A stretch of DNA of 63,679 bases, filler included, from Reclinomonas americana ATCC 50394 (GCA_048213135.1; 19 parts of 19 records of this genome joined end to end with filler, not necessarily neighbours in it), one strand, 5' to 3'. Shown: positions 166 to 61,795, counted from the whole stretch's first letter. The notes: a model not told the origin generated them from the sequence alone. Program-made: numbers and translations.

Positions 166-3100
166 ATGACCGAACTCGAGAGCATTCCCAACGCATCGCC
201 CGCTGTCCTCGAGCGCGAGCTCGTCCGCATCATCGCTCGACTCAATCATCAGGCCACCGGAACCGACACTTCTGCCATTGGTTCTGTGCACTCGGAGTCT
301 CCGGCACCAGGCGCGTCACTGGCTCAGACATGGTCTCCGTCACCGCCGCCCGACGAGAGAGACGTGGTGAGTGTTTGACAAGATGCCCATGCTTCTTTTC
401 TCTCGTTCTAGTTCTCCTCTCTGATTTTCTCTCCCTCTCTCTGTCCTCTTACCTTCTCCCTTCCCTTCTCATGTTGTGCAATCCTCTTTTTTCTTCCATC
501 TCTCCCTTTCTCCCCCTTCCCATGTCATCCCTCCCCCTCATTCCCTTCTCCTCACTCCCCTCTCTCTCCCTCGCAGCCCACCGCTGTGACCCCACTCCCA
601 CCGCTCACCGAATTCGAGCAATTCCTGCAATCTCTGGGACCCGATGTGGCCGAGGCCGATCGCAAGCAATACCTGGACGAGTACGCACATCTGATGGAGC
701 AGATCGACACCATCAACGCCAAGTCGGGCGCCGTGCCGGCCGCACCCACCGCCGGCGGCCCTGGCGACTCACCGCAGGACAACCGCGAGCGATTTGCTCG
801 TCTCCTCGACATGAAACTGCGCTCGAGCAGCGTGCCGCCCGTGTCGCAGGCAGACGTCGCCAAGCCGGGCAGTTGCGTGTCGCCACACAGTGTTCTGTCT
901 TTTCAGTGTAAAAACTGATGATCTTGTGTCATGCAGCGGAGGCGCGGGCCGCCGAAGACGAAGCTGACGATGGCGAGGAGGGTCCCGAGGGTGGGGCGGC
1001 GGTGGCGTCCGGTACGCTGTCGAGCCCACGGCGCCGACTGAGCGATGCTGCCACTCGCCCGTTCCGCAACGCGTTGCACACACCGGAGGTGGAACCAATC
1101 GCTGCTGCTGCCGCTTCCGCTGCCGCTGCTGGTGGTGCCACTGGTGCGACTGTCACGAGGCACGACAACACGGCCGCCGACGACGATGTCCAAGAGAATG
1201 ACGATGAGCACGGTCGCGCAGTAGCCCCGCTGACAGCGGCGTCGCCATTCACTGGCGTGTCGTTGGATCCGGCCATGGACGCGGAAGTGGAGGCTGTGGC
1301 CGGCCGAAGGCTCTCGAAGCCAGCGCCGCCTCTCGAGTCAACCAAAATCAAGGCGCCGCGCACACATGAGGCCAGGCAACAACAAGCAGCGCAACAAGTA
1401 CCGCCGCCACCTCAGCAGCAGGTGGAGCAGGAGGAAGAAGAAGTTGCGCCGCCGCCTCTGTCGGTGCAGCCATCATTGCCGCCGCCGACAAGGGACAATT
1501 TACAACGTCAGCGTCACCAGCAGCAGCTGACAGAGTCGCAAGAGCAGCCCATGTATGCGTCGGTGGCAGACCAGTTGCGTTTGTTGTGTGATAGCCTCTG
1601 TTCTCGTTGTATGGTTCTTCTCCTCTTCTGTCTTTCATGCGCTCATTCTCCGCCTCCCCGTCGTGCAGCATGTCGGCCATTGAGAACACCGTCCTCATGA
1701 TGTACCCGACCATCGAGGACTTTGAGAAGGAACTCGAGGGCCTGCCGGAGCAGGAGCGGGAGGAATACTTGGCCCATTATCGCATCCTCGCCTCAGCGCC
1801 GGGTAGTCGCGGTGGCATGGGCATGTCGCCGCACTTTGGCATTCCACCAACCGCACCAGTCGCTTCTCTCCCATGGGATCCCGCGGCATACCCGCAATTG
1901 GCCGACCCGCAGCAATTGCACCAGGTGCACCTGGTCCAGCAGTGGATGGCCATGATCCAGCAGCAAATGGGCATGCAGCCGCATTCGCCACTGATGACGG
2001 GCATGGGCTTGGGCATGGGAATGCCGCCGCCGCCACTCGATCCAGCGTTGATGCAAGCATGGATGCATCACATGCAGACAGGCGGTCATGGAAGTGGGGC
2101 GGACGCGCAGTATCAAGCGGGGCGGTATGCATCGCAGCCTGCGTTCGGCTCGGCGGATCCACAAGGGTGAGTGTGAATGTGCGAGACCAGTTTTCTTCCA
2201 ATCGTTCTCCCCTCTATTTTCAGTCTGATTTCTCCGTGCTCTCCTGTATTATTCTGTCTCCTCTCCTCACTTCTTCTCCTCGTCGGCTCTCTCTCTCTCT
2301 CTATCCCCATATCCCTTCTGTCCTGTCCTCTCCTATCTCCTCGCCTCACTTCTTTGCTGCTTGTTCCCACTTGTCTGCCACTCCTGTTTTCTTCTCCCCT
2401 CTTCTCTCTCACGTCTCCTGTCTTTGCCTCTCCTTCCTCACCCTTTCCCCTCAGGCAACCGCGCCACCGCCACAACCACCACCACCATCACCACCACCAA
2501 CGCCACGGCGAAGACGACCGTCAGAATCGCAAACACCGCTCCTCACACCGAGCCGAGGGCGAGGGCATTGGCGACGACGAGTCGCAGAAGGGTTCCTCGC
2601 ACCGCCGGCATCACCATAATCGCCACGGCCGGCAGCGCCGTCACAGCCAGCCGGACACCGAGGCGTTGCCGCTGATGACCTCGCCGCCACCCAAGGAGCC
2701 GCCACCACCGCCACCTGTCATCGACGGCAAGTTGCTGTCGGTGGAGCACTTGCAGGAGAAGTTGCTGTCAATGGCGCCGCCGCAGCAATGGGCGTACCTG
2801 CAAGAGTACGAAAAATTCCTGCAGGCGCGTCGAGTCGCTCGTGTGTCGTCGCCGACCGACGACGATCAGTTGCACGAGGTGCGAGAGCATTTGGCACGCC
2901 TGCGTACCATGACACCGGGCACCGCCGGCGAGCTGGATACCGTCGGCGCCGACGAGGAGCACGATGATGAGGCGAAGCGATCGCGGCTACGCTGGGAGCA
3001 GCACCGGTTCCGTCAGTGGCAACTGGAGCAGAAGCATCGAGAGCACGACGAGGCGGTGCGTCAGGAGCAGGAGAAGCTGCAGCGTGAGCGTTCCGAGCTG

Positions 3101-5382: not shown

Positions 5383-5414
<32 letters not shown>

Positions 5415-8235
5415 AGACAGCAGCAGCGAGGACGAGAGCAGTCGGGAACCGTCACCAGCACCACGGCCACAGAAGAGTGCCGTCAAGGCCGAGCCAGTTG
5501 CGAGCAACAAGACGCCGCCGCGTTCTCGGCAGCCCTCCAAGAGCGCCAAGGGTCGCACCGCCACGGAGGAGCAGCCCAGCAAGACCGCGGCGGTGAGCCG
5601 AGTGAAGAAGACTGGCGCAGCTGCCTCGGCGACTACCGCAACGGCGACAACCGGTGGTGGTGGAAAGAAGGCTCCGTCAACGACCAGGCCCGGCGCCGGG
5701 CCGCCTCGGGTCGAAAGCGATGACGGCAGCGGCGGCAGCAGCAGCAGCGACGAAGATGACGACACGGAGGCCGAGGACGAGAAAGACAAGCGATTCGAGG
5801 CCATGCTGGCCGAGACCAAGGCCAAGGTGGCGGCCATGAAGCAGGGTACCAAGCCACCACCGGCGGCTGCTGCTGCTGCGGCAGCACCCTCCATTCGGCG
5901 CACCGGAGACTCGACGAGCAAGGCGGCGTCGCGCAAGACCTCACGGCAGGCGTCAAAGACGCGCAAGGCCTCCACCAGTCGCAAGCGCAAGTCCACCTCG
6001 CGTCCACCACCGCCGCCGCCCATCGACACGCGTCTGCCACCGGATCTGCTGGCTCTCGGATTGAGACCGATTGGTTACTTGCCGACGCAGCCGCCAATCA
6101 CATACGGCCAGCAGGCACTGTCGCCGCCAAAGTACCCGCCAGCGCCACCCATGTCGCCACCGACGTCACGAGCTCCGCGCCCTGTGCTGCCCGCCATTGC
6201 GTCGCCGTCGCCCACGCACAACAACGCGTCGGTGGATGCGGCTGGTGGGGGAGGAGCCGCATTCAATAGCCCGTCGATGCGTACTCGCGCACTCGGGCAC
6301 TCCATGTCGCAAGTGTATCCGCCATCCGCCGTCGTCGACGACCTGTGGCGTGAGGAGCAGCAGCACCAGCAGCCACCGATGCCACCGCAAGTGCCGCCGT
6401 TGCAGCTGTACATGGCTGCGCACCCGTCACAATCCTCGCCGGCCTCCGCTCGCGATGTGCCGCTCTCGCAGTTGCTGTATTCGAGCCCAGGTCGGCGTCA
6501 GCAGGCGGTGGCCACGGCCAGTGCGCGGGTGGCTTCCAATCCGAAGCCGCTGGATTATTGGACCGAGCAAGTTGGTGAGTTGGCGGGGGGATATAGGAGA
6601 GGAGGCAGGAGAGGAGAGGGAGATAGGGAGGGTGGGTGGGAGGGAGAAAGGACGAGAAGCAATGGGGGGAGCGAAATGGAGAGAAAATGGAGAAAGTGAG
6701 AGAAAGTCAGGTAGCAAGAGAACGAGAGAGGGAGAGAAAGTCGGAGAGGGAGAGGGAAGAAAGGGAAGAATTCTTTGCATGATTGAAGATGCTGACGAGT
6801 TGATCCATGTTTGCAGAACGCACGCGTCGCTCTGGTGCTCCTCCTGCATCCAACGCCTCGTCGGCGCAGTTGGGCAAGCCGGCGGTGCCGGGGCACGTTC
6901 TCCCGCCCGCGCGCAAGGGCGACAAGAACATGCCGCGTGAGTTGGTCAAGGCACTAAAGTTGGCCACGGAGGCGCTGGCCAAGCAGTCGTTTGCACTGTC
7001 CATGCCGCCGCCGGCTCCTTGGCCTCCTGTGAAGCACCAGTCGCAACAACAGCAGCAACAGCAGCAGCAGCAGCAGGCGTACCAATCGCAGCTGCAGCAA
7101 TATCAGCAGCAGTTGTTCATGCAGTCGCAGCAGTTGTCACCACGGGAGCGTGGCAAACTCGCCGCTGCGGGTGCTGCGGTTCGCGCCTCGGGCTCGTTTG
7201 GACCGAGTGGGGGACCGGTGCCGATTGATCGGGAGGTGAGGCGAAAGAGGAGAAGGGGAAAGGGGGGTGAGAAAGGAAGGGAAGGGAGGCGAAGGGAGGC
7301 GAAGGGAAGGAGAGTGGACGGGATAGGCGCCTCGTTCTGTCTCCATGTCATGCTCGTTTTTTTGTGCGTCTTTCGTTCTCAGTTTGTGGTGCAGATGCAA
7401 GTAAGCAGCGACATATGTGTGAGAGAGAGAGAGAGAGATAGACCAAGTCTGTGTGTATTATGTATATTCCTCACTTTGTGCAAGTCAAGATGCGCAGTCG
7501 CTTCGTTGCGCTGTTGTCGGTCTTCTTCGTGTCATACGTGTCTCAGCAGTTTGTAAAAAGTACGGCTGGAGAGATATGGAGAGAGAGGCAACTGCATGCT
7601 GCCTTCAAGCAATGTTCTGCTTCCTCATGTATTTCTTGCTTTCATTGTGCGTGTCGCAGAGCCTCGGGTACCGCGATCTGTACTCCAGTCAATTGCGCCA
7701 CCGTGCGTACGCTCCTCGCGGATTCGGCACTCCTGCGGATCAGAACGAGGCTGCTCGACTGGCCATGGAGCAGCAGTTGCGTGCATAATCCTTCGTTCTC
7801 CGACTTTGCATGACCTCTTAACCTTGTTTCCTGTTCACGTAGAATGGCCGATGTACCGCCGCAGCAGTCGCCGCGTTCGATGGTGCCGCCAGAGGTGATG
7901 TGGCAGCAACAGCAGCAATGGCAGCAGCAGCAGTGGCAGCAGCAGCAGCAATCGCCACCGTCACAGCGCCTCCCAGTGTTGTCGCCGCAGTCGTCGGATG
8001 ACCAACGACGAAGAAACGAGGGCGATATGAACGCCACCGAGTCGTCTGCGTCGTCGGTAATGCTTCCGTCGCATCGCGGGGCGCATCGTCCCGACAGTGC
8101 TGCCGTCACCGACAGTGTGATCAACGGCAAGACGTTTGGGCAGTCTGCTCGATGTTGCGTGGAGAGAAGGGAGAGAGAGGAGTGGACAATGCAATCATCC
8201 AAACACATCTTACGTCTCTCTTTCTCTCCCTCCTC

Positions 8236-8273
<38 letters not shown>

Positions 8274-8759
8274 GCACGCTTCTGAGTCACTCAATCTGCC
8301 ATTGTCACTCTTACTCTTTCTCATTGCTTTCTCCACTTCCTCAACATGCTTTGTTTGTTTCCGACAGCCACTCCTGCGGCCAATGCCGGCCCACTTCCTC
8401 CACCGCTGAAGCGTCGCGTCTCCGCTGTGCCGTCGATGCCGTCGTCAGTGTACTCGGCCTCATTTGCGACGGAGAGTGCCGGCAGCACGCCGGTGGCTCC
8501 GGCGCTCCCGTCGCCAAAGGCTAATCATCGCTCTCCTATTGTCGCTGGTGCACGAGCCGTTGCGAACAGGAGCAGCACGAGGAGTGACGACGATGACGAC
8601 GATGAAGAGGAGGATGATGACGACGACGACGCGTCGGATCAGTACAGCTCCGACACGGACGGCTCGAATCCGCCGGCAAGTGCGGCCGTGAAGAAGCTGT
8701 TGCGGAAGCCAGGCGTCGGCTTGCCGCCTCCTCCGCGACTCATTGGGGAGTTGCGGTAG
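166..8759 (+). CDS. Large multi-exon low-complexity/coiled-coil protein of unknown function
   Basis: Phase-consistent exon chain (approx. 166-367, 577-871, 937-1573, 1669-2167, 2455-4315, 4382-4894, 5245-6574, 6817-7235, 18-nt microexon 7383-7400, further exons, 7843-8153, 8369-8759 TAG). Long E/Q/R coiled coil, His-rich and P/Q-rich tracts. Could be more than one gene. Confidence 0.6.
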
Positions 8760-8978: not shown

Positions 8979-9928
8979 TCAACGACGCGGTGTGGCGGCC
9001 ATGGGGTGCGGAGGCGCACGACGAGAGTGCACTCGTTGCTGAATGGCACGAGCGGCTGCGCCTGTCGGTGCAGGTGGAGCGCCAATGCCAAAGAAGCGTC
9101 GCAGCAGTGCCTCGCGATTCCGATACGCCACGTAGCCGGAGACACCGAGGAGAATGAGGATGAGGGCAACGGCGGAAGGGGAGATGCCAAAGGAGCGGTA
9201 CGGTCCGGTGGCCACCATCGAGGTCTTGCAGCGTTCTCGCGTGAGCGCCTGGTTGCGGTCCTCCGACGGGATCCTCCGCTGGATGTCGGCCACGAATTGT
9301 GCAAAGTAGTTTTGCACGGCGCGGAGGTTGGTGGTGCCGAAGATCATCTGATGGAAGGGGAAGGTGAGGGGGGAGGTGAGGGGGGAGGGTGAGGGGGAGG
9401 GTGAGGGGGAAGGGTGAGGGGGAAGGGTGAGGGGAAGGGTGAGGGGAAGGTGAGGAGGGAGGAGAGGGAGGAGAGGGAGGAGAGGGAAGGTAGAGGGAAG
9501 GAGAGGGAGGTAGAGGGAGGTAGTAGGGNNNNNNNNNNNNNNNNNNNNNNNNNNNNNNNNNNNNNNNNNNNNTTAATTAATTAANNNNNNNNNNNNNNNN
9601 NNNNNNNNNNNNNNNNNNNNNNNNNNNNCTGGCACAAACACAAAACTCTCTCACTTACACACTTTTCGCACTCACTCTCTCAAACACTCACTTTTTCGCA
9701 GGCATTCTCACACTCCTTCTCTCTCTCACACACACTCACCGCATCACGCAGTTCCTCTGGGAGTTGCAGAATGACGGCGGCAAAGGAGCGCGAGACCTTG
9801 CCGAGCACCTCGTGACAGTAGCGCAGCGCGGGGGAGGCGTCGGCGACCACCGGAAGCGGGGTGAAGAAGCGCATGCGAATCATCGAGAGCAGCTCGCCCG
9901 GGTGCGACAAGAGGCGCACGATTTCCAT
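8979..9928 (-). CDS. FDFT1: Squalene synthase (first and last exons; middle lost in assembly gap)
   Basis: Exon 9928-9740 MEIVRLLSHPGEL...YCHEVLGKVSRSFAAVILQLPEELRDA carries the hallmark SRSFAAVI motif. Exon 9347-8979 TTNLRAVQNYFAQFVADIQRRIP plus a hydrophobic anchor matches the SQS C-terminus. Confidence 0.9.
9529..9628. other. Assembly gap placeholder N44-TTAATTAATTAA-N44 (first of 18)
   Basis: Identical six-frame-stop linker recurs near 11176, 13361, 15467, 20556, 22401, 28644, 32726, 35477, 40675, 42048, 43813, 45488, 48623, 55459, 58935, 60221 and 62240, mostly flanked by (GA)n/(CA)n runs. Confidence 0.97.
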
Positions 9929-11072: not shown

Positions 11073-11144
11073 AGGCATCGCCATGTATCGATCATGGTGC
11101 CTGTGGGTTATGAGCCCACCGCTCTACCTTTGAGCTACGATGCC
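11073..11144 (-). tRNA. tRNA-Met(CAT), initiator-like but atypical
   Basis: Cloverleaf GGCATCG/CGATGCC, GCTC/GAGC, GTGGG-CTCATAA-CCCAC, CCATG-ATCGATA-CATGG. Three anticodon-stem G-C pairs and an A54/A60 T-loop are initiator marks. A T6 Pol III terminator follows. Confidence 0.88.
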
Positions 11145-39800: not shown

Positions 39801-41421
39801 TCCGGAGACCGGCAACAAGTATCTCATCACCGCGTGTGACGGCTGCTTCAAGATCTTTGACATTGAGGAGGCTCGGGTGCGTCGTCTACCGCACTTTGTG
39901 AGAGATCAGTTTCTCCAGCTGAGTGAGTGACTCAACAACCTTTTCTCCTTCTTTGCAGTTGCTGCAAGTGTGCGACGCGCCGTACACCGGCAATGCCGAC
40001 TTTGTGCACTTTGTGCATCCGGTCGGGTTGCACGTGGAGCCGCGCCAGTTTGTCATGATTAGTCGCGGCGTGTGCGAGTTTGACGACGACGGGCAGTCCA
40101 CGGCTCCGTCGACGGTGTGCATGCACGTGCTGGGATTGCCGGAAAATGGAGGCGACACGTTTGCGCTGGGTACGGCGCGGACGTTTTCACATCCACTGTT
40201 GCGTGCACTCTAAGAGGGGAAGGGGGTTGTCACAGGAGAAGAAGCTCATTCTGTGTGTGTGCATGTGTGTAGGTACGAGTCGCTATACACGCCTGTGAGA
40301 CCAGCGGTGACTGGGCGATATCTGTTCGCGCCGTCGCAGGGTGGCCGCCTCTTTGTGTGGCGGCTGATGGATGGCAAGTTGATTGGCGTGTGCGATCAGA
40401 ACGAAGGTGCGTGGACGGGAGGAGAGACGGGAATTGAAGAAAGCAGAGAGAGAGAGAGAGGGAGAGAGAGAAAGAGAGAGAGTATCGCGTGATGTGCAGT
40501 GTCTTCACCGTTGCTTTCTTTCTGTATTTTCTCCCTCTTGGCCTTTAACTCACCATTGCGTGCATGCCTGTATGACCGAGATGGAGTCTGTGAGTGAGAG
40601 ATAGAGATGGAGTTCTATAGGAGAGGGAGATATGAGCAGGAGAAGGGAGGAGAAGAAAAAGAGAAAGAGCGAAANNNNNNNNNNNNNNNNNNNNNNNNNN
40701 NNNNNNNNNNNNNNNNNNTTAATTAATTAANNNNNNNNNNNNNNNNNNNNNNNNNNNNNNNNNNNNNNNNNNNNGGGGTTTGTGTCTCGTTTCTGGGCTC
40801 GTCTGTGACATTTGAGTGAATGAGAGACAGAGTGAGAGACAGAGAGAGATGAAGCGAGTGAGTGAGTGTGTCTGTTCATGTTTGTATGATTGGGATGGAG
40901 TTAGTGGGAGAGAAAGAGAAAGTGAGAGTGCGTGTGAGAGAGACTGGTGTCCTTATTTGTTGCCTCTCTCATGTGTTCCACCTGCAGGCCACGACATTCT
41001 CAGCACTCTCGCGCACCCGACGCAAGATCTGGTGTTTGTTGCTGGACACGGTCTGTCTTCAACCCCTTTCTCTGCATTGTGGCCACGAAACTCACTGCCT
41101 GCGCACGCAGAGAGCCGCGTGGTCGTCCTTTCGCCCGATCCATCATCAGCGCCACCGCAGCTGGCACCACCACAACCTCCACCTCCGCAGCCGCAGCAGC
41201 AACCTGCACCGATATTAGCTCTTCCGCCGCTGCCGCCGCCGCCACCACCACCGCCACCACCGCCTCCACCACCACCACAGCCTATGCAGACGTCGCACTT
41301 GCCGTCGTCGTTGCCGCCGCTTCCGTCGGCTCCACTATCCGATCTCATGAACGACGACACGGGAATGGAGGACGAATTCTGGAAACCACCGTCGCCCTCC
41401 AGCGACTTCTTCGACGCATAA
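36877..41421 (+). CDS. HARE-HTH + WD40-repeat protein with Pro-rich tail
   Basis: EAYRALKKARRSLTTLELKERIDQAGRYRFGGSTPINTLAGALS...SPFLLVGQGLHIL fits the HARE-HTH pattern. WD-like exons (HDGAATAMTISPDGQLLAT...VRLY; ITACDGCFKIFD). Basic/acidic N-terminal region. Confidence 0.72.
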
Positions 41422-41544: not shown

Positions 41545-42640
41545 TTAGTCGACGGCGACAAAAAGGCCGTTGTAAAGATTGCGGGTGCCTCGTGTTGGGT
41601 TCGACACGATTCCATTGTTGCCTTCGCCGGCCACCAGCATGGTGGAGCTGCCGCCCTGGTCCATCTCCATGGCCACTGTGGCACCGATCAGATCCTTCAT
41701 AAAGTAGGCCATGGGCTTGGCCTCGAGGCCGCATGTGGGGTCGGAGCGATGGCACCCGTCGTGACCATCCGACACCACCATCACCAAGCTCAGGTTGCAG
41801 TTGTTCGGGTCGGGGCACGGTTCTTGGCGAATCAGGCCGACAGCGGTGTTGGACGAGTGCTCCCAGATGTTGACGTTGTGATCGTCAAAGGGGATCTCCA
41901 CCACGGGGACTGTGTGCGCGCCGACTTGTAAGAGCGGAAAGAGAGAGAGAGAGGGAGAGGCAGGAGGGAGGAGGGAGAGGGAGGAGGGAGGAGGGAGGAG
42001 GGAGGAGGGAGGAGGGAGGAGGGAGGAGGGAGGAGGGAGGAGGAGGANNNNNNNNNNNNNNNNNNNNNNNNNNNNNNNNNNNNNNNNNNNNTTAATTAAT
42101 TAANNNNNNNNNNNNNNNNNNNNNNNNNNNNNNNNNNNNNNNNNNNNGGCCGTCAATGATGAGCGCCGTGGGCCGTGCGTATCCCAGGCAGTCGCAGCTG
42201 TGGAGGGGTGCATGAGTAGAGAGGACAAGGATGCGCCGATGGTAAATATTTGTAACTTGCTGGAGAGGAGAGTGCCCTGCAGCGCGGCGGCGGTGAGGAT
42301 AGTGACGTACAAGGAGGGAAGTGGGAGAGAGATGGGACGTAACATTGACCACCATCAGGCCGTCGCCAATACCGTAGTTCGGGTGCTCCGCAGAGGCCTT
42401 TTCCAGCGCCTCGGCGTGCGATTTCAGGAAGCACACGTCGTCGATGAACTGCGCAGCAGGTGAGCAGTGGAAGTGGCGTGGGGAGGTCGCGCGTACACAA
42501 CGCTCTTGGAGTCGACACGCCAAAAGTAGCCGCTGAGGGGAGAGTTAGCAAAGGGTGGAAGGGGGTGGGGCAAGGACAGCAAAGTACCCGTTGACGCCGA
42601 GAACGACATTCGGAATTTGCGTGGACATGTCGGCGAGGTT
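41545..42640 (-). CDS. Phosphodiester glycosidase (NAGPA-like) family protein, partial
   Basis: GVNGGYF, NTAVG, VMVVSDG, AMEMDQGGSSTM and RNLYNGLFV motifs occur in family order. Confidence 0.75.
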
Positions 42641-44470: not shown

Positions 44471-44820
44471 TTACAGTGTCGAGCTTGTTGGCGTCGACGG
44501 GGTAGTGGTGCTTGAGCGGCTGCCGGTGGGTCCGTTGGTGGTGCCTGGCGAGAGGAGGAGAGCTCGGCGTCTCTCAATGGCCTGGTTTTGGCGGCGCCAC
44601 TCGGCTTCCTCTCGTTCGTGGCCGGCTTGCTCCAGGCGGTAGACGCCGCGCAGGCGAGGGGAGGCGGGGGAGGTCGGTGAGGAGGGGGAGGCGCGTGATC
44701 TGCGAGTGGGCAAAGGGTGAGAAGCGGCGATGAAGGGGGGGGGTGGGGAGGGTGAAGTGCAACGCAACTCGTTGAGCAACTTGACGCGCTCCTCGTTGCG
44801 CTGGTGGCGCACTCCGCGAG
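44471..44820 (-). CDS. 3' exons of a small unknown protein
   Basis: ARGVRHQRNEERVKLLNE / SRASPSSP...EQAGHEREEAEWRRQNQAIERRR, with a probable GTTGCG intron at 44768. Confidence 0.4.
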
Positions 44821-46411: not shown

Positions 46412-47518
46412 TCAAAATCCCACATCGTCTGCCACAATGCTGCGTCGGTACACCTGCACCTCGGCCTCTTCGACAATGAAGCACCGCAGCACGATCTCCG
46501 CCAGGCAACAATCGTTCTCCTCCCCCTCCTCCTGCGTGGCCACCACCGCTTGCACCTCGTGAACCGCGCGCAACGCCACCTGCGCCACGCTGAGCTCCCT
46601 TGTGGCCATGCCGCACTGTGTTGACCACACACGCACAGACGCATCGTTGCACGCCGCGGCAATGTGCTGCCCGTCCACGCTCACCGCCACGGCACACACA
46701 TCGCGCACGCCGTCCACGTCAAACTGGCGCACTTGTCGGCCACTGGCGGGCGACCACAGGCGAACGGTGCCGTCCATGCTGCCGCTCACAATCAGCCGCT
46801 CGCCCTGCACCGGCAACAGCGCCACTGCGTACACGAGGCTGCCGTGACCTTCGATTCGCTGCACCTGCTCTCCACTGGCCAGCGAATACAAGCGCACAGT
46901 GCGGTCTTGCCCGCCCGCCACCACCACCTCATTGGTGACCGCCACCGACCAAATGCCATTCACCGGTCCCTTGAACGAGCGCACATGCGCGCCATTGACC
47001 AGCGACCACACACGAATGGTCTCGTCCCAGCTGGCCGACACCACGTGCGCTCCATCGGGTGTCAGCGCCACCGACATGGCCGACTCGGTGTGCGATGCGA
47101 ATCGATACACCATGGCACCACTCTCCGCTCGCCACACGCGCACTGTGCGATCTGCACTCCCCGACACCACCCACTCTCCATCTCCGCTCACGGCCACACA
47201 CCGTACCATCTCCGCATGCCCCACCAATCGTCGCAACAACTTGTACTCTTTCCACAAGCACACTGCGGCGTCCTTGCCGCCACTGACAATCATCGAGTCG
47301 GCGGGTGCGACTGCCACTGCGTACACTGCGCCTGTGTGTCCACCCTCCTCCAGCACGTGCTCCAGTCGGTCGGTGAGCAGAGACCACACACGCACACGGG
47401 CGTCGTCGCAGGCGGCGACAATGTGCTGCCCGTCGGGCGTGCAGGCCACAGAGTGCACTGTGTCGCAGGGAGCACGGAAGATTCGCTTGAAGGGTGAGGG
47501 AGGAGGCGGGTTACTCAT
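46412..47518 (-). CDS. Intronless WD40 propeller protein with conserved C-terminal helical segment
   Basis: 368-aa ORF with about 7 GH...SVA...VSGS.D.TVRVW repeats; the C-terminus is shared with 62432-63545. Confidence 0.88.
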   Translation of the reverse strand: MSNPPPPSPFKRIFRAPCDTVHSVACTPDGQHIVAACDDARVRVWSLLTDRLEHVLEEGGHTGAVYAVAVAPADSMIVSGGKDAAVCLWKEYKLLRRLVGHAEMVRCVAVSGDGEWVVSGSADRTVRVWRAESGAMVYRFASHTESAMSVALTPDGAHVVSASWDETIRVWSLVNGAHVRSFKGPVNGIWSVAVTNEVVVAGGQDRTVRLYSLASGEQVQRIEGHGSLVYAVALLPVQGERLIVSGSMDGTVRLWSPASGRQVRQFDVDGVRDVCAVAVSVDGQHIAAACNDASVRVWSTQCGMATRELSVAQVALRAVHEVQAVVATQEEGEENDCCLAEIVLRCFIVEEAEVQVYRRSIVADDVGF

Positions 47519-48183
47519 TCGTGTGTGAGAGAGAAAGTGTGTGTGTGCTCGCTAGTGGAAATTCGCTGATATCGAAAACGAATTACCAATATGTCGAAGC
47601 CGCTGAAAAAAAACGAATGCTTGAACCTTGGAGTCATGTGGAAAGGACACTGGCTGTAGAATGCCCGGCGAGAAAGCTGCCGGACTCAGAAACAATAACT
47701 GTAGTTCAATCGACAAATTTGAACGACTGCGTTTTTTGGCCTCGTGTAATTGTATCATCACATACGACCAAGCAGATGGGTTGCTCACTGTGCTGTGTAA
47801 GCACTTACTGACCGTGGACTGTCGATGAGTTGGCTTTGCGGGGAAAACGCAGTGTCGATGTTCAGATTGCAATTGTTCGAGATCAGTCTGCAGCCAGTTT
47901 CAAGGAGAGGCAGCGGCGCATATCTAGCGAGCAGAGGTATCAAGTGATGTTTGCGTCCTTTGATGCTGGTGACCGTTGCACGCTGCAGGAAAAGCTGATA
48001 CTGGACGCGACGTCGACAACGCGAAGTTAATAGTTGAGGATCGCGGAGGCTACACTAGAGGCAGTCTCACGTAGGCGAGTGCCAAGGACGGCCTTCGGCA
48101 ATCAGGCTCCGGGAAAACAAATGCCTCGAAGCAGAAAAGAAAGAACTTCGATGTCCAGGACAACCAGTTCTCTGTGTGGCGCG

Positions 48184-51100
48184 ATGACGAGCGCGGGAGA
48201 CGATGATGACTTTGCAGACTTTGCAGCGTATGAGGGAGCTGTAGTGCCTACGGGTGAGCGAGTGTGAGTGTGTGTGAGGAGAGTGTGTGACATGTCTGAC
48301 TGGTGTGTGTGTGAGCTCAGGTGTGCCGCCTGTGGTGCCTGCAGCAGAGGATGATTTTGATGAGTTTCTGTCACATGTGGCGACGAAAGGTGAGAGAGAC
48401 AATGTGTGAGAGAGAGAGAGTGAGAAAGAGTGAGAGAGAGAATGAGCGAGCGCGTGAGTGAGTTGCTGCGTGGCCGACTCGTTGTGCGCTCTGTGTGTGG
48501 AGAAGAGATGGAGAGCGACGCGACCATGTGCGTGAGAGAGATCAAAGAAGTGCAAATTGGTTCAACTTTAATGCTGATCTGCGTGCGACAGTGCCTTCTG
48601 CGTTGGTGGCGTCGATTGCCGCNNNNNNNNNNNNNNNNNNNNNNNNNNNNNNNNNNNNNNNNNNNNTTAATTAATTAANNNNNNNNNNNNNNNNNNNNNN
48701 NNNNNNNNNNNNNNNNNNNNNNCCAGCACCACCTGTTGTGCCAGTGGCTTCACCACAGAAGCCGGTCGCCGTTGCCTCTCCAGAAACTGGTGCAGTACCT
48801 GCTGCTGCTCCTATTGTTGCTGGCGTTGATGATGACGAGTTTGCGGAGTTCGAATCGGTGCCGGTGCAGTCGGACTCGCCCGTGGCCCTGTTGGATGCCG
48901 ACGATGTGCAAGACGCGTTCACCCCGCAAGTCACTGCGCCAGTGATTATTCCACCTCCTCCAGCAACAGCAGTGGCGCCTGTGGCAGCGCCAGTCGTCTC
49001 TACTGCTCCAAGTCACGCTATTGTTGCCGATGATGACGAATTTGCTGAGTTCGAATCAGTACCCGTGCAGTCGGACTCGCCAGTGGCGCTGTTGGACGAC
49101 GATGACGATGTGGTGAAGCCGGCTGCGCCTGTTGCTGTGCCACCAGTGTCACCACCGAAGCCTGTCGCCGCTGTCGCCTTGCCAGTTGCCGCTCCAGCAC
49201 CGCCCATTGTGCAAGTGGCTTCACCACAGAAGCCTGTCGCTGCCGTCGCCTCTGCAGTCGCTGCTGCAGCACCACCTGTCGTCCCCCCAGCTTCACCACC
49301 GAAGCCTGTCGCTGCCGCTGCCTCGCCGATCGCTGCGGCTGCACCTGCTGCCGCTGTTGTTGCTGGCGTTGACGACGACGACGAGTTTGCGGAGTTCGAA
49401 TCGGTGCCGGTGCAGTCGGACTCGCCCGTGGCGTTGCTGGACGACGATGACGATGTGGTGAAGCCGGCGGCTGTTGCTGTGCCTCCGGCGTCGCCACCGA
49501 AGCCTGTCGCCGCTGTCGCCTCGCCAGTTTCCGCTGCTGCTGCAGCACCTGCGGTGCCTCCAGTGTCACCACCGAAGCCTGTCCCTGCCGTCGCCTCTCC
49601 AGTCGCTGCTGCAGCACCACCTGTCGTCCCCCCAGCTTCACCACCGAAGCCTGTCGCCGCCGCTGCCTCGCCAGTTGCTGCTGCACCACCTGTTGACCCT
49701 TCAGTATCGCCTCCGAAGCCTGTCGCCGCCGCCTTGCCAGTCGCTGCTGCAGCATCACCTGTTGTGCAGGTGGCTTCACCACCGAAGCCTGTCGCCGCCG
49801 TCGCCTCTGCAGTCGCTGCTGCAGCACCACCTGTTGACCCTCCAGTATCGCCTCCGAAGCCTGTCGCCGCCGCCTTGCCAGTCGCTGCTGCAGCACCACC
49901 TGTTGTGCAGGTGGCTTCACCACCGAAGCCTGTCGCCGCCGTCGCCTCTGCAGTCGCTGCTGCAGCACTACCTGTTGACCCTCCAGTATCGCCTCCGAAG
50001 CCTGCCGCTGCCGCTGCCTCGCCGGTCGCTGCGGCTGCACCTGCTGCCGCTGTTGTTGCTGGCGTTGACGATGATGACGAGTTTGCGGAGTTCGAATCGG
50101 TGCCGGTGCAGGCGGACTCGCCAGTAGCGCTGTTGGACGACGATGACGATGTGGTGAAGCCGGCGGCTCTTGCTGTGCCACCCGTATCACCACCGAAGCC
50201 TGTTGCTGCTGCTGCACCTCCTGTTATCCCCCCAGCTTCACCACCGAAGCCTGTCGCCGTCGCTGCCTCGCCAGTCGCTGCTGCACCACCACCTGTTGTC
50301 CCTCCAGTATCTCCACCGAAGCCTCTCGCTGCCGCTGCCGCTGCCTCGCCTGTCGCTGCGGCTGTGCCTGCTGCCGCTGTTGTTGCTGGCGTTGACGACG
50401 ACGACGAGTTTGCGGAGTTCGAATCGGTACCCGTGCAGTCGGACTCGCCCGTGGCCCTGTTGGATGACGACGATGTGCAAGACGCCTTTACTCCGCAAGT
50501 CACTGCGCCAGTGATTATTCCACCTCCTCCAGCAAAAGCATTGGCACATGTGTCCGCGCCAGTCGTCTCTACTGCACCAATTCACGCTGTTGACGATGAT
50601 GACGAATTTGCCGATTTCGAATCAGTACCTGTCCAGTCGGACTCGCCAGTGGCGCTGTTGGATGATGATGACGATGTGATGAAGCCGGCTGCGCATGTTG
50701 CTGTGCCACCTGTGTCGCCACCGAAGCCTGTCGCCGCTGTTATCTCTCCAGTTTCCGCTGCGGCCTCACCTGTTGTGCCTGTGGCGTCGCCGAAGCCGGT
50801 TGCCGCTGTCGTTTCTCCAGTCGCTGCCGCAGCACCAGTTATACAAGTGGCTTCACCGCCGAAGCCTGTCGCCGCCGCTGCCTCGCAAGTCGCTGCTGTG
50901 ACCGCTGTTACCGTTGTTGCTGGGGTGGATGACGATGACGAATTTGCTGAGTTCGAATCGGTTCCGGTGCAGTCGGACTCGCCCGTGGCGCTGTTGGATG
51001 ACGATGACGATGTGCAAGACGCCTTCACCCCTCAAGTCACTGAGTCGATGGCCATTCCACCGCCCCCTGCATCCATCGTGGCGCCTGTGCCCGCACCAGT

Positions 51101-53201
51101 CGTCTCCTCTGCTCCAAGTCACGCTGTTGTTGACGATGACGACGAGTTTGCCGATTTTGAGTCAGCGGCTGTCCAGTCAGAGTCACCGATTGCGTTGCTC
51201 GACGACGACGATGATGGTTCGCGGCCATCTGCGACGAGAACTGCCACTGGTGCCGTGAGCTCGGCATCAACCGTTGCCGTTTCCAACAACAATGTGGACG
51301 ACGACGACGATGAGGAGGAGGAGTTTGCTGACTTTGAATCGGCACCAGTGCAGTCGGAGTCGCCGATTGCTCTGTTGGACGACGACATCGCATTTTCGCC
51401 GCCTGTTGTGACAGCGGTGTCAACAGCGCCCGTGCCCGCGCCCGTCGTGGCAGTTGCTGCAGTTGAGGAGGAGGACGATGAGTTTGCCGATTTCGAGAGC
51501 GCCACCGTGGAGCCGCCAGCCGCCGTGGCAGTGACAGCCACCGCTGCCGCTGCTGCTACAGTGGACGATTTCGAGTTTGACGAGGCCGAATTCCACAGTG
51601 CGCCGCCGTCGACGGCTGCAGCCGCCGAGAGTTGCGACCCGTTCATCGCCGTTTGCATCACATTTGCAAAAGTGTCACTGACCGTCATAATTATCCGCAG
51701 TTCCACCTCCGCCTCCCTTGGCCCCCATCACTGTCCCACCGCCGCCTTCCACGTCGCTACAGCCTCCGCGACCCGCCTCACTGCTGGGAGTGAGCGATGT
51801 GCAGGCGAGCGAGGTCTTTGGCTCCTCGCTCAGTCAGCGCATGTGGGAACAAGTCACCAGTCAGTGGTTCGGCACACAGTCGGCCCTGCTTGGCCGCGCT
51901 CCGCCAGCTGTCGTCGACACCTCGCTCTCGACCTTGGTGGATCCGCGTGCGGGAGGGTTCGTACGGGGTGCAGGAGATTCACACGTGCTCGGTAGTCAGT
52001 CACTCACACACTCGCGTACAGTGGGAAACTCGTGTTTGATCGCATCTTGCGTGACTTTTTGGATCCGTTCTACACGCGCTTCAACTTTGTCGTTGCGTCA
52101 GAGTCCACTCGCGCATCACTGCCTTTCTCGTTCTCACTGCTGCTGCTGCAGCCGTCGCCCACGTTGCACGGTGGCGAGTTTACGATGCCTGCCGGTGCCA
52201 ACACACCACCGCAGTCTCCGTCACCACCTCGGCTAAATGCCGCTCCTGGAGGCTCCCGCTCGCCACCTCAGTCGCCTGAAGGTTTGCCGTGGCTGCGTCT
52301 CCTCGTACTTGTGTATGGGAAGTGGTTCTCACTTCATCTTGTGCATCCCCCAGTGGCCGTGGAACCTCTCTCCTCGCTGATTGGAGCGCCGGCTGTGCCC
52401 GCCGATACTGTGGTTGCCTGGCGCAGCCTGTCGCCGCCCGCCACCGTATCCGTCACCGTAGCTCAACCTCGTCCACAAGTTGCCTCGCCGCCACCATCAT
52501 CGCCACCACCACCACCAGCAGCTATCGTCCCCGCCGCTGCCGTGCACCAGCATGCGCCAGTGACTGCTGTCGTTTCCTCATACGATGACGACGAGGAGAA
52601 TGGTGAGGCAGAGTGGTCTGCATTTACGGAGGCCACTCCACCTGTGCCTCCTCCTCCTCCTGCTGCTGCGATGGCGGTTGTAGCACCCCAGTCGCCTCCC
52701 CGCGCGCTGTTCTCGTCGCCACCAAAACAGCAGCAAGCCGCGCCCGTCCCTGCCGCCGCGCCCGTCAAACCCATGGACGACGACGACTTTTTTGGTTTCA
52801 TGTCGGCCCCGAAGGCAGCCGGTGCAGTCTCACAACCAGTGCCATCACCAGCGCCATCACTACCTGCTGCGTTCGACACCAGCGCCATGTTTGGCGTAAC
52901 GGCACACCCACCGCCACAGCATCAACAACAGTACAGCCACAACGACGACGACGATCCATTTGGTTTCGGTGGTCCGCGACGAGCAACAGTTCAACCTCCT
53001 CCTCCTCCTCCTCCTCCACCTGCACCAGTACCACCACCACAACCCGCGGCAGTGGCCCCTGCGACTGGAGCGCTGGCTGAAGTGCTGGCGCACAGTCGAC
53101 CGCTCGTGCATCGCATGAATCTGCCACATGCCGCTGTGTCGGCGGCGGTGGCGGGCGAAGTAAGGCAGTTGTTGTCGGCTCGCTTGCAGGGACTGACATG
53201 A
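48184..53201 (+). CDS. Aftiphilin/gamma-synergin-like adaptor-binding protein with tandem DDDEFA(E/D)FES motifs
   Basis: Ten EFA(E/D)FES repeats in P/A/V-rich spacers, N-terminal DDFADF, and EWSAF and DPF motifs. Phase-consistent exons run to TGA at 53201. Confidence 0.6.
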
Positions 53202-54023: not shown

Positions 54024-54425
54024 ATGTTTGACAAGACATTGCAAGACCTTGTGAAGGGCATTCGGCAGCACAAGAAAAACGAGGCGGAGTACATTGCCGC
54101 CCAGTTGCGCGAGATTCGCGACGAGGAACTGCGCTCCAATGATCCGCGAAAGAAGTTTCTCGCGGTGCAGAAGCTCACCTATGTTGCGTGCAAAGTCAAT
54201 GGGACAGAGAGGAGAGATGGAAAGGGAAGGAGAGGGCGTGTGTGAGGACGAGATGGACATGTCTATATTCGCACGTGTGTGGTGTGTGTGTGGGTGTGTG
54301 TGTGTGGAGGGAGGGAGGGAGAGAGAGAGAAGGAGTGTGCTTGTGTGTTTGTGTTCAATTGCGCGTGAGAGAGAATGAATGTCGCATCTCATTGACGCAT
54401 GATGGAGAGAGAGAGATTGAAGCAG

Positions 54426-54481
<56 letters not shown>

Positions 54482-55397
54482 TCACTCACTCACGTACACA
54501 CGCAGCTAGAGGGAGAGATGCTACAGCTCGAGTACAGGTAGAATGAGAGACGAGTGGAAGAATGTGTGTGTGTGTGAGAGAGAGTGAGAGAGAGTGGAGG
54601 GCTGTGCAGCTTGATCGCACTTGCTACAGCCACTGGAGAGCGTGAGGTGTGCACAAGTGTGTGTGTAATGGGAGAGAAGATTGAAGTGCAGGCAAACCGC
54701 CGTGAAATCACATCACGTTCTTTCCTCCTCCTCCCCCTTCATTCTCACTTTCCCTCCCTTCCCCTTCCCCTCTTCTGCAGCTCCACATGGCCGGCTACGA
54801 CGTCAGTTTCGGCACCTTCCACGTAACCGAGGTCCTCTCCAACCCCGTCTTCGCCATGAAGCGCGCCGGCTACCTGGCCGCCTCGCAGCTCTTCCCAACC
54901 TCGGCCGACGTGGAGCCAGCGGTGCTCATGGTCACCAATCAGCTCAAGAAGGATCTCAAGTCGAACAATCCCTACGAGATTGGTGTGGCCATTAATTGCA
55001 TTGCCAACATTGCCACGTCGGACTTGGCGTCGGATGTGGTCGCCGATGTGGTCGCATTGCTCGGCAACTCGCGCTCGTACGTGCGCAAGAAGGCGGTGCT
55101 GGTGTTGCACAAGTTGTTCCTCAAGTTCCCCGACTCGTTGAGACCGACGTTTGCGCGTTTGCGCGAGAAGCTGGAGGACACGGATCCGAGTGAGTCACTT
55201 ATCGTGCCGAGTTGGGGGATACACGCACACGCGCAGCGTCTCATTGATGTTTCACAGCGGTCGTCGCCTCCACGGTGAATGTGCTGTGCGAGTTGGCGCA
55301 GAAGCACCCGGAGAACTATGTGCGCCTGGCGCCGTCGTTTTTCACGTTGTTGACCACGTTGAACAACAACTGGACGCTGATTAAGATTGTGAAGTTG
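54024..55397 (+). CDS. AP3D1: AP-3 complex subunit delta, 5' part
   Basis: MFDKTLQDLVKGIR...KLTY|LHMAGYD...KRAGYLAASQ...YVRKKAVL...FPDSLRPTF...VNVLCELA...NNNWTLIKIVKL; the remainder is lost in the gap. Confidence 0.95.
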
Positions 55398-57952: not shown

Positions 57953-58397
57953 TTTTTGAGGCGAGGTGCGAGTGAAGATCAGCAAGAGAGAGACAACGAG
58001 ACAAGCTTTTCTCGTGTGTGTGTGTGTGTGTGTGAGAAAGAGGTGTGTGGGGTGGCGTGTGTGTGTTTTTTTTTACGAGAGTGTCCCCTCTCACACACTT
58101 GGTACAAAAAAATTCACGAGAGAGCTGCCAGCGGCTCTTTCCTTTGTGGAAATCTTCCGTGGGGATGTTTGTGGGTGGCGGGTTGCTCGGTTCGCTGGAT
58201 GTGGAAGGTGGCGTTGTGGAGGTGCAAAGGGAAAGGGAAGGGAAAGGCGGGAAGGGATGAGAGGGAAAGAGGCGTTGGGGGAGGAGAGGGAGAGGGAGAG
58301 GGAGAGAGGGATAGGGATAGGGAGAGAGGGAGAGAGTGAGAGAGAAGGAGTGTGTGTGTGAGAGTGTGAGTTTGTGTGTGTGAGAGAGAGAGAGCGT

Positions 58398-58720: not shown

Positions 58721-58876
58721 GAGAAGAGAGAGAAGAGAGAGACAGAGAGAGAGGTAGCAAGTCAATAAGCGCGCTGCATGCAAGAGACAACCTGGATTTT
58801 GAGTGGCACAAGTCGCGGACAGGGACTCCTCCATTGGCTTGACTGTCTTCCTTCTGCGTGAGGCGGCAGTTGGTCA

Positions 58877-58916
<40 letters not shown>

Positions 58917-59369
58917 GAAGAAGAAGAGAGAGAGNNNNNNNNNNNNNNNNNNNNNNNNNNNNNNNNNNNNNNNNNNNNTTAATTAATTAANNNNNNNNNN
59001 NNNNNNNNNNNNNNNNNNNNNNNNNNNNNNNNNNGAGGAGGGAGGGAGAGAGAGGGAGAGAGGAGTGAGAAGATTTGGACTGACTGTGAGAGACTGAGAC
59101 AAGTCGTTGGGAGAAGCTAGCTCGCCGAACGGGCGGCGAAGACTCCCCAATAGCTTGCGTTCTCGCTCTTGTTAGGCCACCTGATCGGCAGCGATCGCTG
59201 TGCGAAGGCAGGAGCGAGAGAGAGAGAGCGATCGAGAGTGTGAGAGTGAGACAAGTCGTCTTCTGACGCGCGCTCGTTGCAATAGGCAGCGTAGACTCCA
59301 CTACCAGCGACAGAGCGCTGTCGTGATCATTCCCATTGCACGCCTTATCGACGGCGATCGTTGTGTGGC

Positions 59370-59401
<32 letters not shown>

Positions 59402-59722
59402 ATAAACAAAACGAAAGACAACTGCATCGCGATCGCGATCGCCACTGCGCAGTGCAACATGAACTTCCCCACACACGGAACGTGACTGGAGCGATCGCTC
59501 TCGCCGTTCACCTGCTTGGCAACAACCATCATGAGTCGGAAGATCGATCGCGACGTCGACGTTCCATTCTCTCTTGCTACACATGAAGAGTAAAATCCCC
59601 ATTCTTGTGCTCATCTTTGCGTAAACCCTCCCCGCATTCTGCCAGAAACGAACCCAGCACAGCAGCCAGCCGACTTCACTTGAAAGTCCTTGTCCCAGTT
59701 CAATCACTTCACCTCCGTCACC

Positions 59723-60144
59723 ATGAGCGAGGCTCCACCCGCCGACTCACTGCGCGCAGGCGAAGAGTACCAGCGCTTCCGCTCCCTCGTCCCACTCAAA
59801 CAAGTGAGCACACACGCGCGTGGCCATGTCACAATGTCACACACACTCTCACTGTGACACTTTGACAAAAAGGTGTCTGTTGCTGGCGACGAGGAAGACA
59901 AGAACTGGGTGTACTATGACCTGGGCCCGAGAGAAAAGGCACGTGAGATGCACTCACAAGTGTGTGAGAATAAGAGAGAGAGAGCCCTGACACCATATAT
60001 GGTGCCGTGTTCCTCTCTTCCTCTCTTGTCTCTTTTTGTTATGAGTAGATTCCGCTCATTTGTCTTCCGGGAGCGTCGGGAACGGCCAACAACTTTTACC
60101 GGCAAATGATTCAGCTGTGTCCCAAGGGCTATCGCATTATCGCG
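59723..60144 (+). CDS. SPG21: Maspardin (alpha/beta-hydrolase fold), 5' three exons
   Basis: EYQRFRSLVPLKQ|VSVAGDEEDKNWVYYDLGPREK|IPLICLPGASGTANNFYRQMIQLCPKGYRIIA matches the maspardin N-terminus; the second intron is GC-AG. Confidence 0.88.
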
Positions 60145-60376
60145 GTTCGGAACAACTTTGCAGAGAAGGGGCAAGGAGGGAGGAGGGAAGAGGGAGGAGA
60201 GGGAGAGAGAAGGGGGAGAGNNNNNNNNNNNNNNNNNNNNNNNNNNNNNNNNNNNNNNNNNNNNTTAATTAATTAANNNNNNNNNNNNNNNNNNNNNNNN
60301 NNNNNNNNNNNNNNNNNNNNTCTCTCTCCCGGCATTCCCTCGCTGTTCACTCACCACGCATTATCACGATGTGCAG

Positions 60377-61795
60377 AGGACAACGACACCTTTGACAAGG
60401 CTAAGAACCTCGGCACTCTGACTGCTGGCGCCGCCGCCACCGTCATCAATGCCAGGTATTGCTGTCTCTCTTTCTTTCTCTTGATATTTACCATTCTTTC
60501 GCACTCATCACTGTCCTCTCCTCCATCTCCACGCAGCGTTGACGCCCCCGCCGATATTGATTTCTTCAAGGTTTGTGTCACTGTTACCCGGACTTTTGCC
60601 CTCACCCGCCTCTCTCTCACCTTCTCCTCCCACAGATCACCACCACCGCCTCGTCGATCTCGATCAGCGTCGCACCCCCCAGCGTGGCGGCCTACCTGAG
60701 CGGCCCGCAGAACAACGACGCCACCGGCTCGTGCTCGGCTGGCACCTCGTACAACCCGCAGAACCAGCAGAACCTGGCCTTCCAGCTCATCTCCAGCAAT
60801 GGCACCACGGTCATCACCACCGTCAACGCCACCGCCGCCGGAACTGCCGAGGCCATTACCAATTTCACGCTGCCGGTGTCGACGGGCGGAGTCTACTTTA
60901 TCCGTGTGTACTCGGCATCGACCACCACGGCTGTGATCCAGCGCTACACCATGTCGGTGTCGGTGGCAGGCACTACGGCGCCCTCGTGCGCCACTGTCAC
61001 GTGCCCGAGTGGCCAGTTCTGCTCGAATGGCGCCTGGTGAGTGTGATTGTCGTGCACTGTTGGCGTGTTTGCGCAACTTATTTCTTACCACTACTTTTCA
61101 TGCGCAGCACGGCGTGCACTTGCGTGTCGGCCAACACCCTGCTGTGCAACACTGACGGCTTCTGCTCGTGCAAGGTCAACTTCTCCGGCACCACCTGCTC
61201 CGCCTGCGCAACGGTTTGTTCTCGTCTCTTGATTACATTCTGTGCCACACAACGAGTCTCACTGCTTGCCGCCGCAGGGTTACACTGGCACCACGTGCAC
61301 GACCTGTGCCGCTGGCTTCTTTGGCCCGACCTGCGACGTTCAGTGCACCAGCACCACGTGCAAGAACGGCGGCTCGTGCACCACCACTGGCACATGCACA
61401 GTTGCGCCTCATTATTATCTTACCATTATCTTCCGTTGCTGACACACACGCACACAAAAAAACAGTGCGTCAACGGCTTCACCGGTGCCTTCTGTGAGAT
61501 TGCGCCGCCGACGCTCACTGCTGGCGGCACCTGCTTCCGCTCGCGCACGGGCGTCATCTCCGCCAACTTCACCAACATGCCGTCTGGTGCGTACCTGATG
61601 GTGGTGGCCGCCGTGGGCGACACCAGCAAGGTCGCCGGCACCACCACTGTGGCGGTGTCGGGCAGCGGCTCCGCCCAGCTGGGCTCGATCAGCCTGCCCT
61701 CCGGCACCTACATTATCAAGGCGTTCACCAACTTGACTACGCGTGCGGCCATTACGACGCCGTCGCCGTCCTTTACAATCACCACCACTTGCTAA
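60377..61795 (+). CDS. 3' part of a probable extracellular protein: PPC-like domain + EGF repeats + C-terminal beta domain
   Basis: EDNDTFDKAKNLG...DIDFFK...YFIRV (pre-peptidase C-terminal-like), then CSCKVNFSGTTC, CAAGFFGPTC and CKNGGSC...CTCVNGFTGAFCE; TAA at 61795. Confidence 0.75.

Follow-up and report, generated by a model that had tools for sequence, protein, structure and literature searches.

Putative one-base-shifted 5′ splice sites as an abundant donor class in a genomic window of Reclinomonas americana

Roca and Krainer reportedly described in 2009 a shifted (+1) register between atypical 5′ splice sites and the U1 small nuclear RNA (snRNA), said to be a rarity in human, where the perfect run is long (GUUAAGUA type), and Roca et al. 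are said to have added in 2012 a bulge +2/+3 register of the same pairing. Here, we analyse 5′ splice sites (donors) reading GTTG(C/A)G in Reclinomonas americana ATCC 50394, in a window that is the whole 63,679-base stretch of DNA under study (GCA_048213135.1). In the available part of Tan et al. (2016; PMC4856993), the validated non-canonical U1 registers together amount to 1.5% of 201,541 human donors. Outside human, diplonemid donors are given as (G)/GTATG or as non-canonical in the available part of PMC12621601 (here and below a slash before an intron, or within a peptide, marks the cut); a diplonemid origin for the window was weighed and set aside.

The class of donors studied here shares with the human shifted register its GUU start, a recognition block one base further in, a +1G that would pair in the place of -1G and a cut at GU. 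While the human register is rare, the class appears to represent about a quarter of the introns in the window, and, unlike human shifted donors, it has a G-C-G core that pairs poorly with textbook U1. It resembles the bulge +2/+3 register in its GUU start, in having one U too many and in the one-base displacement of the block downstream, but that register keeps -1G paired whereas the class is devoid of -1G (0/20). GC-AG and U12-type introns are likewise minority donors with a strict consensus of their own; however, the class starts with GT and not GC, a cut after GTT is rejected by homology, and there is no likeness to the U12-type donor. Indeed, a U12-type assignment was discarded because the sites read GTTGCGT, unlike the U12-type consensus RTATCCTT. 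As in Archamoebae, where the available part of a preprint (bioRxiv 10.1101/2022.06.08.495308) presents a lineage-specific donor motif ill-read by textbook U1, with a GUU start in Entamoeba, the motif here departs from the textbook; in that account, however, Archamoebae have one nearly universal motif in the normal register and one changed U1, whereas the present window has two motifs side by side, of which the new one lies a base further in. We found no published lineage with abundant shifted donors in a search that left most subscription journals outside, and such donors may nevertheless have been described; a literature search for the motif itself returned one unrelated preprint only. What would be new is the rise of a donor of the shifted-register type to a major class, together with its unexplained G-C-G core.

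The preliminary description of this DNA had reported 22 GTTG(C/A)G donors and four variants (three GTTTCG and one GTTGTG). All 26 motifs are present at the positions and on the strands that it gave (Table 1). Its count of 17 independent positions also stands, the five paralog pairs that it had merged being real: the two copies of one gene, A (22.5-29.5 kb) and B (29.6-36.3 kb), are 80-91% identical. As judged from sequence comparison, these sites are supported as real GT-AG donors that would be cleaved before GTT, and for about two thirds of them this position of the cut is well supported.

The exact junction could be placed at several genes, and the homology arguments first advanced for AP-3 delta, uracil-DNA glycosylase (UNG), the EGF C-x-C and the NHL YIAD/ junctions all hold. 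For AP-3 delta, the first three exons were spliced both ways and compared with the 87 homologs whose alignment spans the junction: KLTY/LHM outscores KLTYV/LHM in 86 of the 87, with one gap fewer. In UNG, the exon ending in ...HHYII(R) corresponds to residues 161-183 of the human chain 1akz_A and the next exon, AHPSPLSA..., begins at residue 186, leaving exactly R and the split-codon S for residues 184-185. In uninterrupted NHL repeats, Y-V-G-D is separated by two residues from an N, which is itself followed after two more residues by [IV]-R, and at four interrupted junction types the spacing D/E+2+N/G+2+[IV]R is kept only with a cut before GTT. These are, each with its paralog, YIAD/SANNTVR, YIAD/QLNHAIR, YIAD/RSGPIVR and, for the GTTTCG variant, YVGEV(N)/NCRIR. 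Finally, the EGF-like junction reads C-T-C-V-N-G-F-T-G-A-F-C, that is C-x-C-x2-G-F-x4-C, and an added valine would break the EGF C-x-C pattern. A GC-AG intron cut after GTT (GTT/GCGT), which adds one residue, was thus ruled out at AP-3 delta, UNG, the NHL repeats and EGF.

All 25 modelled introns of the class begin with GT and end with AG, the 13 that were aligned all end with YAG, and the length is not a multiple of 3 in 19 of the 25. Their median length is 67 nucleotides (nt), versus 68.5 nt for 26 canonical introns. Between paralogs, indels occur just after the motif (10 nt for 26593/33322, 1+10+2 nt for 23779/30372 and 2+4 nt for 28978/35807), and the 60-nt upstream exon flanks of the pairs carry none. 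A YTRAY motif lies 9-45 nt before the acceptor in 9/25 class introns and 8/26 canonical introns, versus 10.7% of control YAG sites (p = 8e-4 for the class); the strict motif is thus found in a third only.

The introns were delineated by several parses. A donor-free Viterbi parse, which relied on coding potential and a weak preference for YAG and had no donor model, yielded 50 introns. It recovered six of the 26 sites (872, 7776, 8154, 16044, 51631 and 54183), and the 20 that it missed lie mostly at short exons in the NHL genes. An offset-aware parse, whose donor model was learned from canonical donors only and also applied one base downstream, added 1574 and 21708, together with three likely members absent from the preliminary description (-18641, +38106 and +40198). 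With the coding model retrained on the NHL genes, 25884, 26593, 27915, 32439, 33322 and 34828 were recovered. A first self-trained parse without splice signals, noisy and contaminated by antisense shadows, and an automatic per-site frame picker, which often chose wrong frames, were used only where stated. Altogether, the offset-aware and NHL-retrained parses contain 66 introns, of which 37 are at most 130 nt long; ten of these are shifted, 26 have G at +5 and one is of another type. The class is thus abundant in this window, as had been proposed, while its rank as a major donor class genome-wide is an extrapolation from one window of about 62 kb.

The strand on which the motif occurs provides the convincing annotation-free signal. 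A self-trained coding model without splice signals gave a coding strand to 16 blocks (55.8 kb). Among the 92 GTTG[CA]G words in the window, those with T at +7 number 26 on the coding strand, two on the antisense strand and three without strand assignment, versus 35, 24 and two, respectively, for those without T at +7. The 26:2 bias of GTTG[CA]GT is significant by itself (binomial p = 3e-6) and against the set without T (Fisher p = 0.001), which establishes its strand specificity. Once words of acidic coding repeats are set aside, the top strand-biased heptamers are GTTGCGT (20:1) and GGTGCGT (15:0). As the bias of the first matches that of the second, GTTGMGT (M for A or C) behaves like an ordinary donor word. 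In counts alone, a first-order model expects 50 GTTGCG and 10.7 GTTGCGT, versus 60 and 23 seen. GTTGMGT is raised only mildly, with 31 occurrences versus 21.2 +/- 4.8 in dinucleotide shuffles (31 was reached in 1 of 100 shuffles); the comparison word GGTGMGT occurs 40 times versus 21.6 +/- 5.2.

At the 22 GTTG(C/A)G sites the last exon base is A in ten, T in nine, C in three and never G, as first noted. We compared 20 independent class sites (the 17 above and the three new ones, with copy A only) with 23 canonical donors: G is at -1 in 0/20 of the former versus 20/23 of the latter (p = 2e-9). In the donor-free parse, a G precedes 12 of the 12 GTG[ACG]G donors whose two flanks each score at least 15. 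Across all coding-strand GTTGMGT, G is at -1 in 2/26 (p = 0.009 versus base composition); both are GTTGAGT, at 19594 and 44172, and neither is established as a donor. The profile of the class overlaps that of canonical donors at 0.915 with an offset of +1, versus 0.785 with no offset. This offset-by-one match extends beyond the positions used for selection, since T at +7 (17/20) corresponds to T at canonical +6 (17/23), and the G/T-rich +8 to the G-rich canonical +7.

On balance, these sequence data lead us to favour the reading in which the class represents genuine GT-AG spliceosomal introns cut before GTT, with a recognition block lying one base further into the intron than usual and a shifted U1 register. 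The block U-G-(C/A)-G-U, then usually G or U, would be the same as in ordinary donors, G/GUG(A/C)GU(G), one nucleotide deeper. The 5′ splice-site helix with U1, and later with U6, would then form one position out of register: the first G of the intron would fill the slot of the usual last exon G, and +2U would remain unpaired. The chemistry would still pick GU, and the cut would thus fall one base upstream of where the helix places it at a normal donor. As the last exon base would sit in the slot of canonical -2, it would be expected never to be G and often to be A. G-G-U-G-M-G-U-G and G-U-U-G-C-G-U-K are indeed congruent, which fits a like helix at the two types of donor and a cut that follows the position of the available GU. 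The standard U1 5′ end is ACUUACCUG, and over 25 sites the mean number of possible pairs with the U1 5′ end is 6.4 in the shifted register versus 4.4 in the canonical one. We infer that these donors are read by U1 and that the difference lies in the register, not in the sequence of the snRNA.

Several points weigh against this reading. Selection was by motif for the class, while the canonical donors derive from a parse with a donor model that favours G at -1. One duplicated and internally repetitive gene accounts for 12 of the 22 GTTG(C/A)G sites, and for five positions (six sites with both paralogs: 13953, 29441/36293, 39652, 42501 and 44768) the motif and the frame are the only support. As for pairing, a register with a U bulged at +3 allows 6.7 pairs, as many as the shifted one. 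Taking AUACUUACCUG as the textbook U1 5′ end, from which the host's own sequence may differ, the predicted duplex of the class has a mean stability of -1.5 kcal/mol, weaker than that of 500 random GT sites (-2.8), GTGCG (-5.2) and GTGAG (-10.0); with AUACUUACCUG, the shifted duplex would not attain a stability sufficient for recognition. In addition, +5 is C in 19 of the 20 class sites, while C:A at canonical +4 is 8:14 (p = 7.5e-5), although A is the base that pairs with U1. The idea that the motif is the local consensus with an extra T is therefore right as to the one-base offset of the best overlap and falls short at +5. Similarly, the proposal of shifted U1 pairing with G+1 in the role of G-1 agrees with the offset match and the lack of G at -1, and not with the textbook duplex or with +5 C. 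Because of this weak duplex and this +5 C bias, the class is not simply a "consensus plus a T" read by ordinary U1. The shifted register is our best reading of the class without being secured, and a co-evolved or variant U1 is a live rival.

This rival, to which we give a minor but real chance, holds that the donors are real and are read by a changed snRNA. Either the U1 5′ end would have co-evolved, or there would be a second U1 variant whose 5′ end, complementary to GUUGCGU, reads about ACGCAAC where the usual one has ACUUACC. The invariant +3U, +4G and +6G and the near-invariant +5C and +7U do suggest pairing to a complementary RNA, and random GT sites pair better with textbook U1 than the class does. 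A reader complementary to the G-C-G core would remove both the weak duplex and the +5 C problems, the 19:1 bias for C fitting a G in the reader. Indeed, two constructed 5′ ends give -7.1 and -11.2 kcal/mol for the class, the latter (G and C opposite the GC core, A at position 8) giving -4.1 for GTGAG; these variant 5′ ends are, however, constructs made for this analysis. In the available part of the preprint cited above (bioRxiv 10.1101/2022.06.08.495308), precedents are found in Entamoeba (GUUUGU with U1 ACAAAC) and Mastigamoeba (GUACGU with ACGUAC), but Thecamonas and Micromonas keep a standard U1 despite C at +4. Moreover, GTGAG donors, the commonest type, fit textbook U1 well, so that two readers would be needed. 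A still somewhat less probable version makes this explicit as two parallel donor codes, in which G/GUGAGU would be read by ordinary U1, and GUUGCGU, in a quarter or more of the introns, by a dedicated or co-evolved U1-type snRNA, with a cut one base upstream of the helix's usual position. If true, the U2 and U12 types would be joined by a third major class of introns, with an snRNA of its own as the defining feature.

We regard as improbable that ordinary U1 reads these donors in the canonical register by looping out either +2U or +3U. The possible pairs are as numerous (6.7 with the bulge at +3 versus 6.4), and the register is validated in human, with 68 predicted sites of 201,541 in Table 3 of the available part of PMC4856993. 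However, the duplex predicted with textbook U1 is no more stable, and this register keeps the pairs -1G:C9 and +1G:C8 with one U looped out; -1G would thus pair with C9 as at normal donors, where it is found in 20/23, yet it is found at none of the 20 class sites. The lack of G at -1 favours +1G in the slot of -1G over a simple bulged U.

More doubtful still is the proposal that the GTTGCGT 5′ end is the relic of a mobile intron family (introner-like elements), with a shared origin in place of special recognition. The narrow length range (median 67 nt), the strict 7-nt 5′ end and its C at +5 would be compatible with this. Moreover, introns 872-936 (+, 65 nt) and 14547-14612 (-, 66 nt), from unrelated genes, share the 3′ end GTCATGCAG; besides this end and the 5′ GTTGCGT, no further internal similarity was seen between them. 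Against such an origin, the 13 aligned introns have nothing in common except GTTG(C)G(T) and the AG at the end (invariant G1, T2, T3, G4, G6 and terminal AG; mean column identity 35%), canonical introns fall in a like length range (median 68.5 nt), and an origin would not explain the spliceosomal reading. The introner-like family was rejected for this lack of shared internal sequence. Least credible of all is mis-modelling, with many sites being chance GTTGCG in or near exons or being cut 3 nt downstream at a GC donor (GTT/GCGT): the mild excess of the word, the five positions lacking support, the 20 sites missed by the donor-free parse and a perfect GTTGAGT left unused in a UNG exon speak for it, but the 26:2 strand bias, the fact that AP-3 delta, UNG, EGF and four types of NHL junction reject an added residue, and paralog indels that are not multiples of 3 speak against it.

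Table 1. Class donors, candidate members and related words in the window, with the evidence for each ("listed" and "unlisted" refer to the preliminary description)
Positions	Strand	Feature	Basis
872..936	+	65-nt intron, gca/GTTGCGT	donor-free parse; length not a multiple of 3; YTRAY present
1574..1668	+	95-nt intron, cca/GTTGCGT	offset-aware parse; donor-free parse took in-frame GT 12 nt downstream
7776..7842	+	67-nt intron, gca/GTTGCGT	donor-free parse; length not a multiple of 3; YTRAY present
8154..8367	+	214-nt intron, gat/GTTGCGT	donor-free parse; both flanking exons score above 30
13953..14035	+	possible 83-nt intron, agc/GTTGCGT, weak	motif and CACAG acceptor only; coding evidence poor
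14547..14612	-	66-nt intron, UNG gene, gat/GTTGCGT, phase 1	1akz_A residue mapping
14524..14530	-	unused GTTGAGT in last UNG exon, codes part of PLSA	exon aligns to solved UNG structures
15982..16044	-	63-nt intron, aga/GTTGCGT	donor-free parse; if retained, frame open without stop
18635..18641	-	unlisted donor tac/GTTGCGT closing a 78-codon exon	offset-aware parse
21641..21708	-	68-nt intron, cca/GTTGCGG	offset-aware parse; donor-free parse took GT 6 nt downstream, in frame
23717..23779	-	63-nt intron, ctc/GTTGCGT, NHL-cadherin copy A	in-frame stop 17 nt in; paralog intron 76 nt
25823..25884	-	62-nt intron after YIAD/, copy A	NHL-trained parse; spacing D+2+G+2+VR kept
26539..26593	-	55-nt intron after YIAD/, copy A	NHL-trained parse; paralog intron 10 nt longer
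27850..27915	-	66-nt intron after YIAD/, GTTGAGT, copy A	stops in three frames; next exon SANNTVRQ, D+2+N+2+VR kept
28905..28978	-	74-nt intron, variant caa/GTTTCGT, copy A	junction gives YVGEVNNCRIRRV, NHL spacing kept; paralog indels 2+4
29332..29441	-	possible 110-nt intron, cga/GTTGCGT, copy A, weak	paralog segment indel-rich with (GT)n run; upstream exon only 53% conserved
30297..30372	-	copy B paralog of 23779	paralog comparison
32378..32439	-	copy B paralog of 25884	NHL-trained parse
33259..33322	-	copy B paralog of 26593	NHL-trained parse
34763..34828	-	copy B paralog of 27915	NHL-trained parse; paralog comparison
35740..35807	-	copy B paralog of 28978, GTTTCGG	paralog comparison
36169..36293	-	copy B paralog of 29441, GTTGAGT, weak	paralog comparison
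38106..38172	+	unlisted 67-nt intron, aga/GTTGCGT	offset-aware parse
39652..39657	+	listed variant GTTTCG, unsupported	motif present; no coding support
40198..40272	+	unlisted 75-nt intron, act/GTTGCGT	offset-aware parse
42496..42501	-	listed variant GTTGTG, unsupported	motif present
44762..44768	-	listed donor cga/GTTGCGT, unsupported	motif present
51631..51700	+	70-nt intron closing a 969-codon exon, aga/GTTGCGA	donor-free parse; CTGAC branch-like motif
54183..54780	+	598-nt first intron, AP-3 delta gene, tat/GTTGCGT, phase 0	86/87 homologs
61401..61465	+	65-nt intron in EGF-like module, aca/GTTGCGC	C-x-C kept

Two further observations concern donor words of the window. The paralogous donors 27185 (-), cag/GTGAGG in copy A, and 34098 (-), cag/GTTAGG in copy B, differ at +3, the latter being a donor in the canonical register that has acquired a T at +3 and retained G at -1 and +5. 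Separately, GTACGT is 3.75-fold over-represented in the whole window (41 versus 10.9 expected) and hardly present among the predicted donors; this palindromic word may serve as a regulatory site or represent a minor kind of donor.

The introns of the class reside in various genes. The UNG gene (14422-15692, -) spans a contig linker and has its N-terminal conserved exon at 15567-15692. Upstream of it, acidic exons that extend to about 16300 and include the 16044 donor may form an N-terminal extension of this gene. The NHL-cadherin gene, a tandem duplicate (22501-29500 and 29600-36300, -) whose copies are similar with introns included, encodes NHL-type beta-propeller repeats and cadherin-like domains. 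The best relatives of an NHL-cadherin exon are mostly bacterial (planctomycete and similar) cadherin-domain/NHL proteins, at about 40-47% identity and 53% at most. The 969-codon exon (48723-51629, +), just upstream of the AP-3 delta gene, comprises Pro/Ala/Val-rich spacers and about a dozen copies of the acidic motif DDDDEFAEFESVPVQSDSPVALLDDDDD, and matches no Pfam family. The AP-3 delta protein has its closest relatives at about 60-61% identity, one near-top match coming from a malawimonad transcriptome, and the protein collection thus contains no close kin of this organism. Elsewhere, an uninterrupted WD40 frame of 379 codons (46415-47551, -) has as best solved relative by far 2ymu_A, "WD-40 repeat protein" (E 2e-160), and has the appearance of a very regular repeat protein, unlike a conserved housekeeping WD40. 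The protein search returned no protein or transcript product of the same organism (at most 53% identity for the NHL exon and 61% for AP-3 delta), and Pfam on 34 predicted exons gave no domain usable for more junction tests.

The window itself, with 56% G+C, is eukaryotic and rich in introns. It consists of 19 contigs of 1.2-9.5 kb each, joined by 18 identical 100-base linkers (44 N, TTAATTAATTAA, 44 N; the first at 9529-9628), and the contigs mostly end within (CT)n or (GA)n runs. As genes run on across the linkers, the order of the contigs looks like a true scaffold. The sole Rfam match at gathering score in the whole window is a tRNA gene (11073-11144, -; 61.6 bits), located in a short contig without convincing protein gene. 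Rfam revealed no snRNA in the window, U1 and U6 included, whether the gathering threshold was applied or E was relaxed to 1; the additional matches in the latter case were sub-threshold and on microsatellite hairpins.

Human non-canonical registers are rare exceptions that have been proven one minigene at a time. If a quarter of a genome's introns used donors displaced by one base, that genome would be a natural large-scale experiment on uncoupling U1 binding from the choice of the cleaved bond. If true, this would reveal the extent to which the 5′ splice-site code is able to drift, and would test the co-evolution of snRNAs with this code. Gene finders trained on ordinary donors will mis-annotate such genomes, in which exons would be shifted or merged under a canonical-only view.

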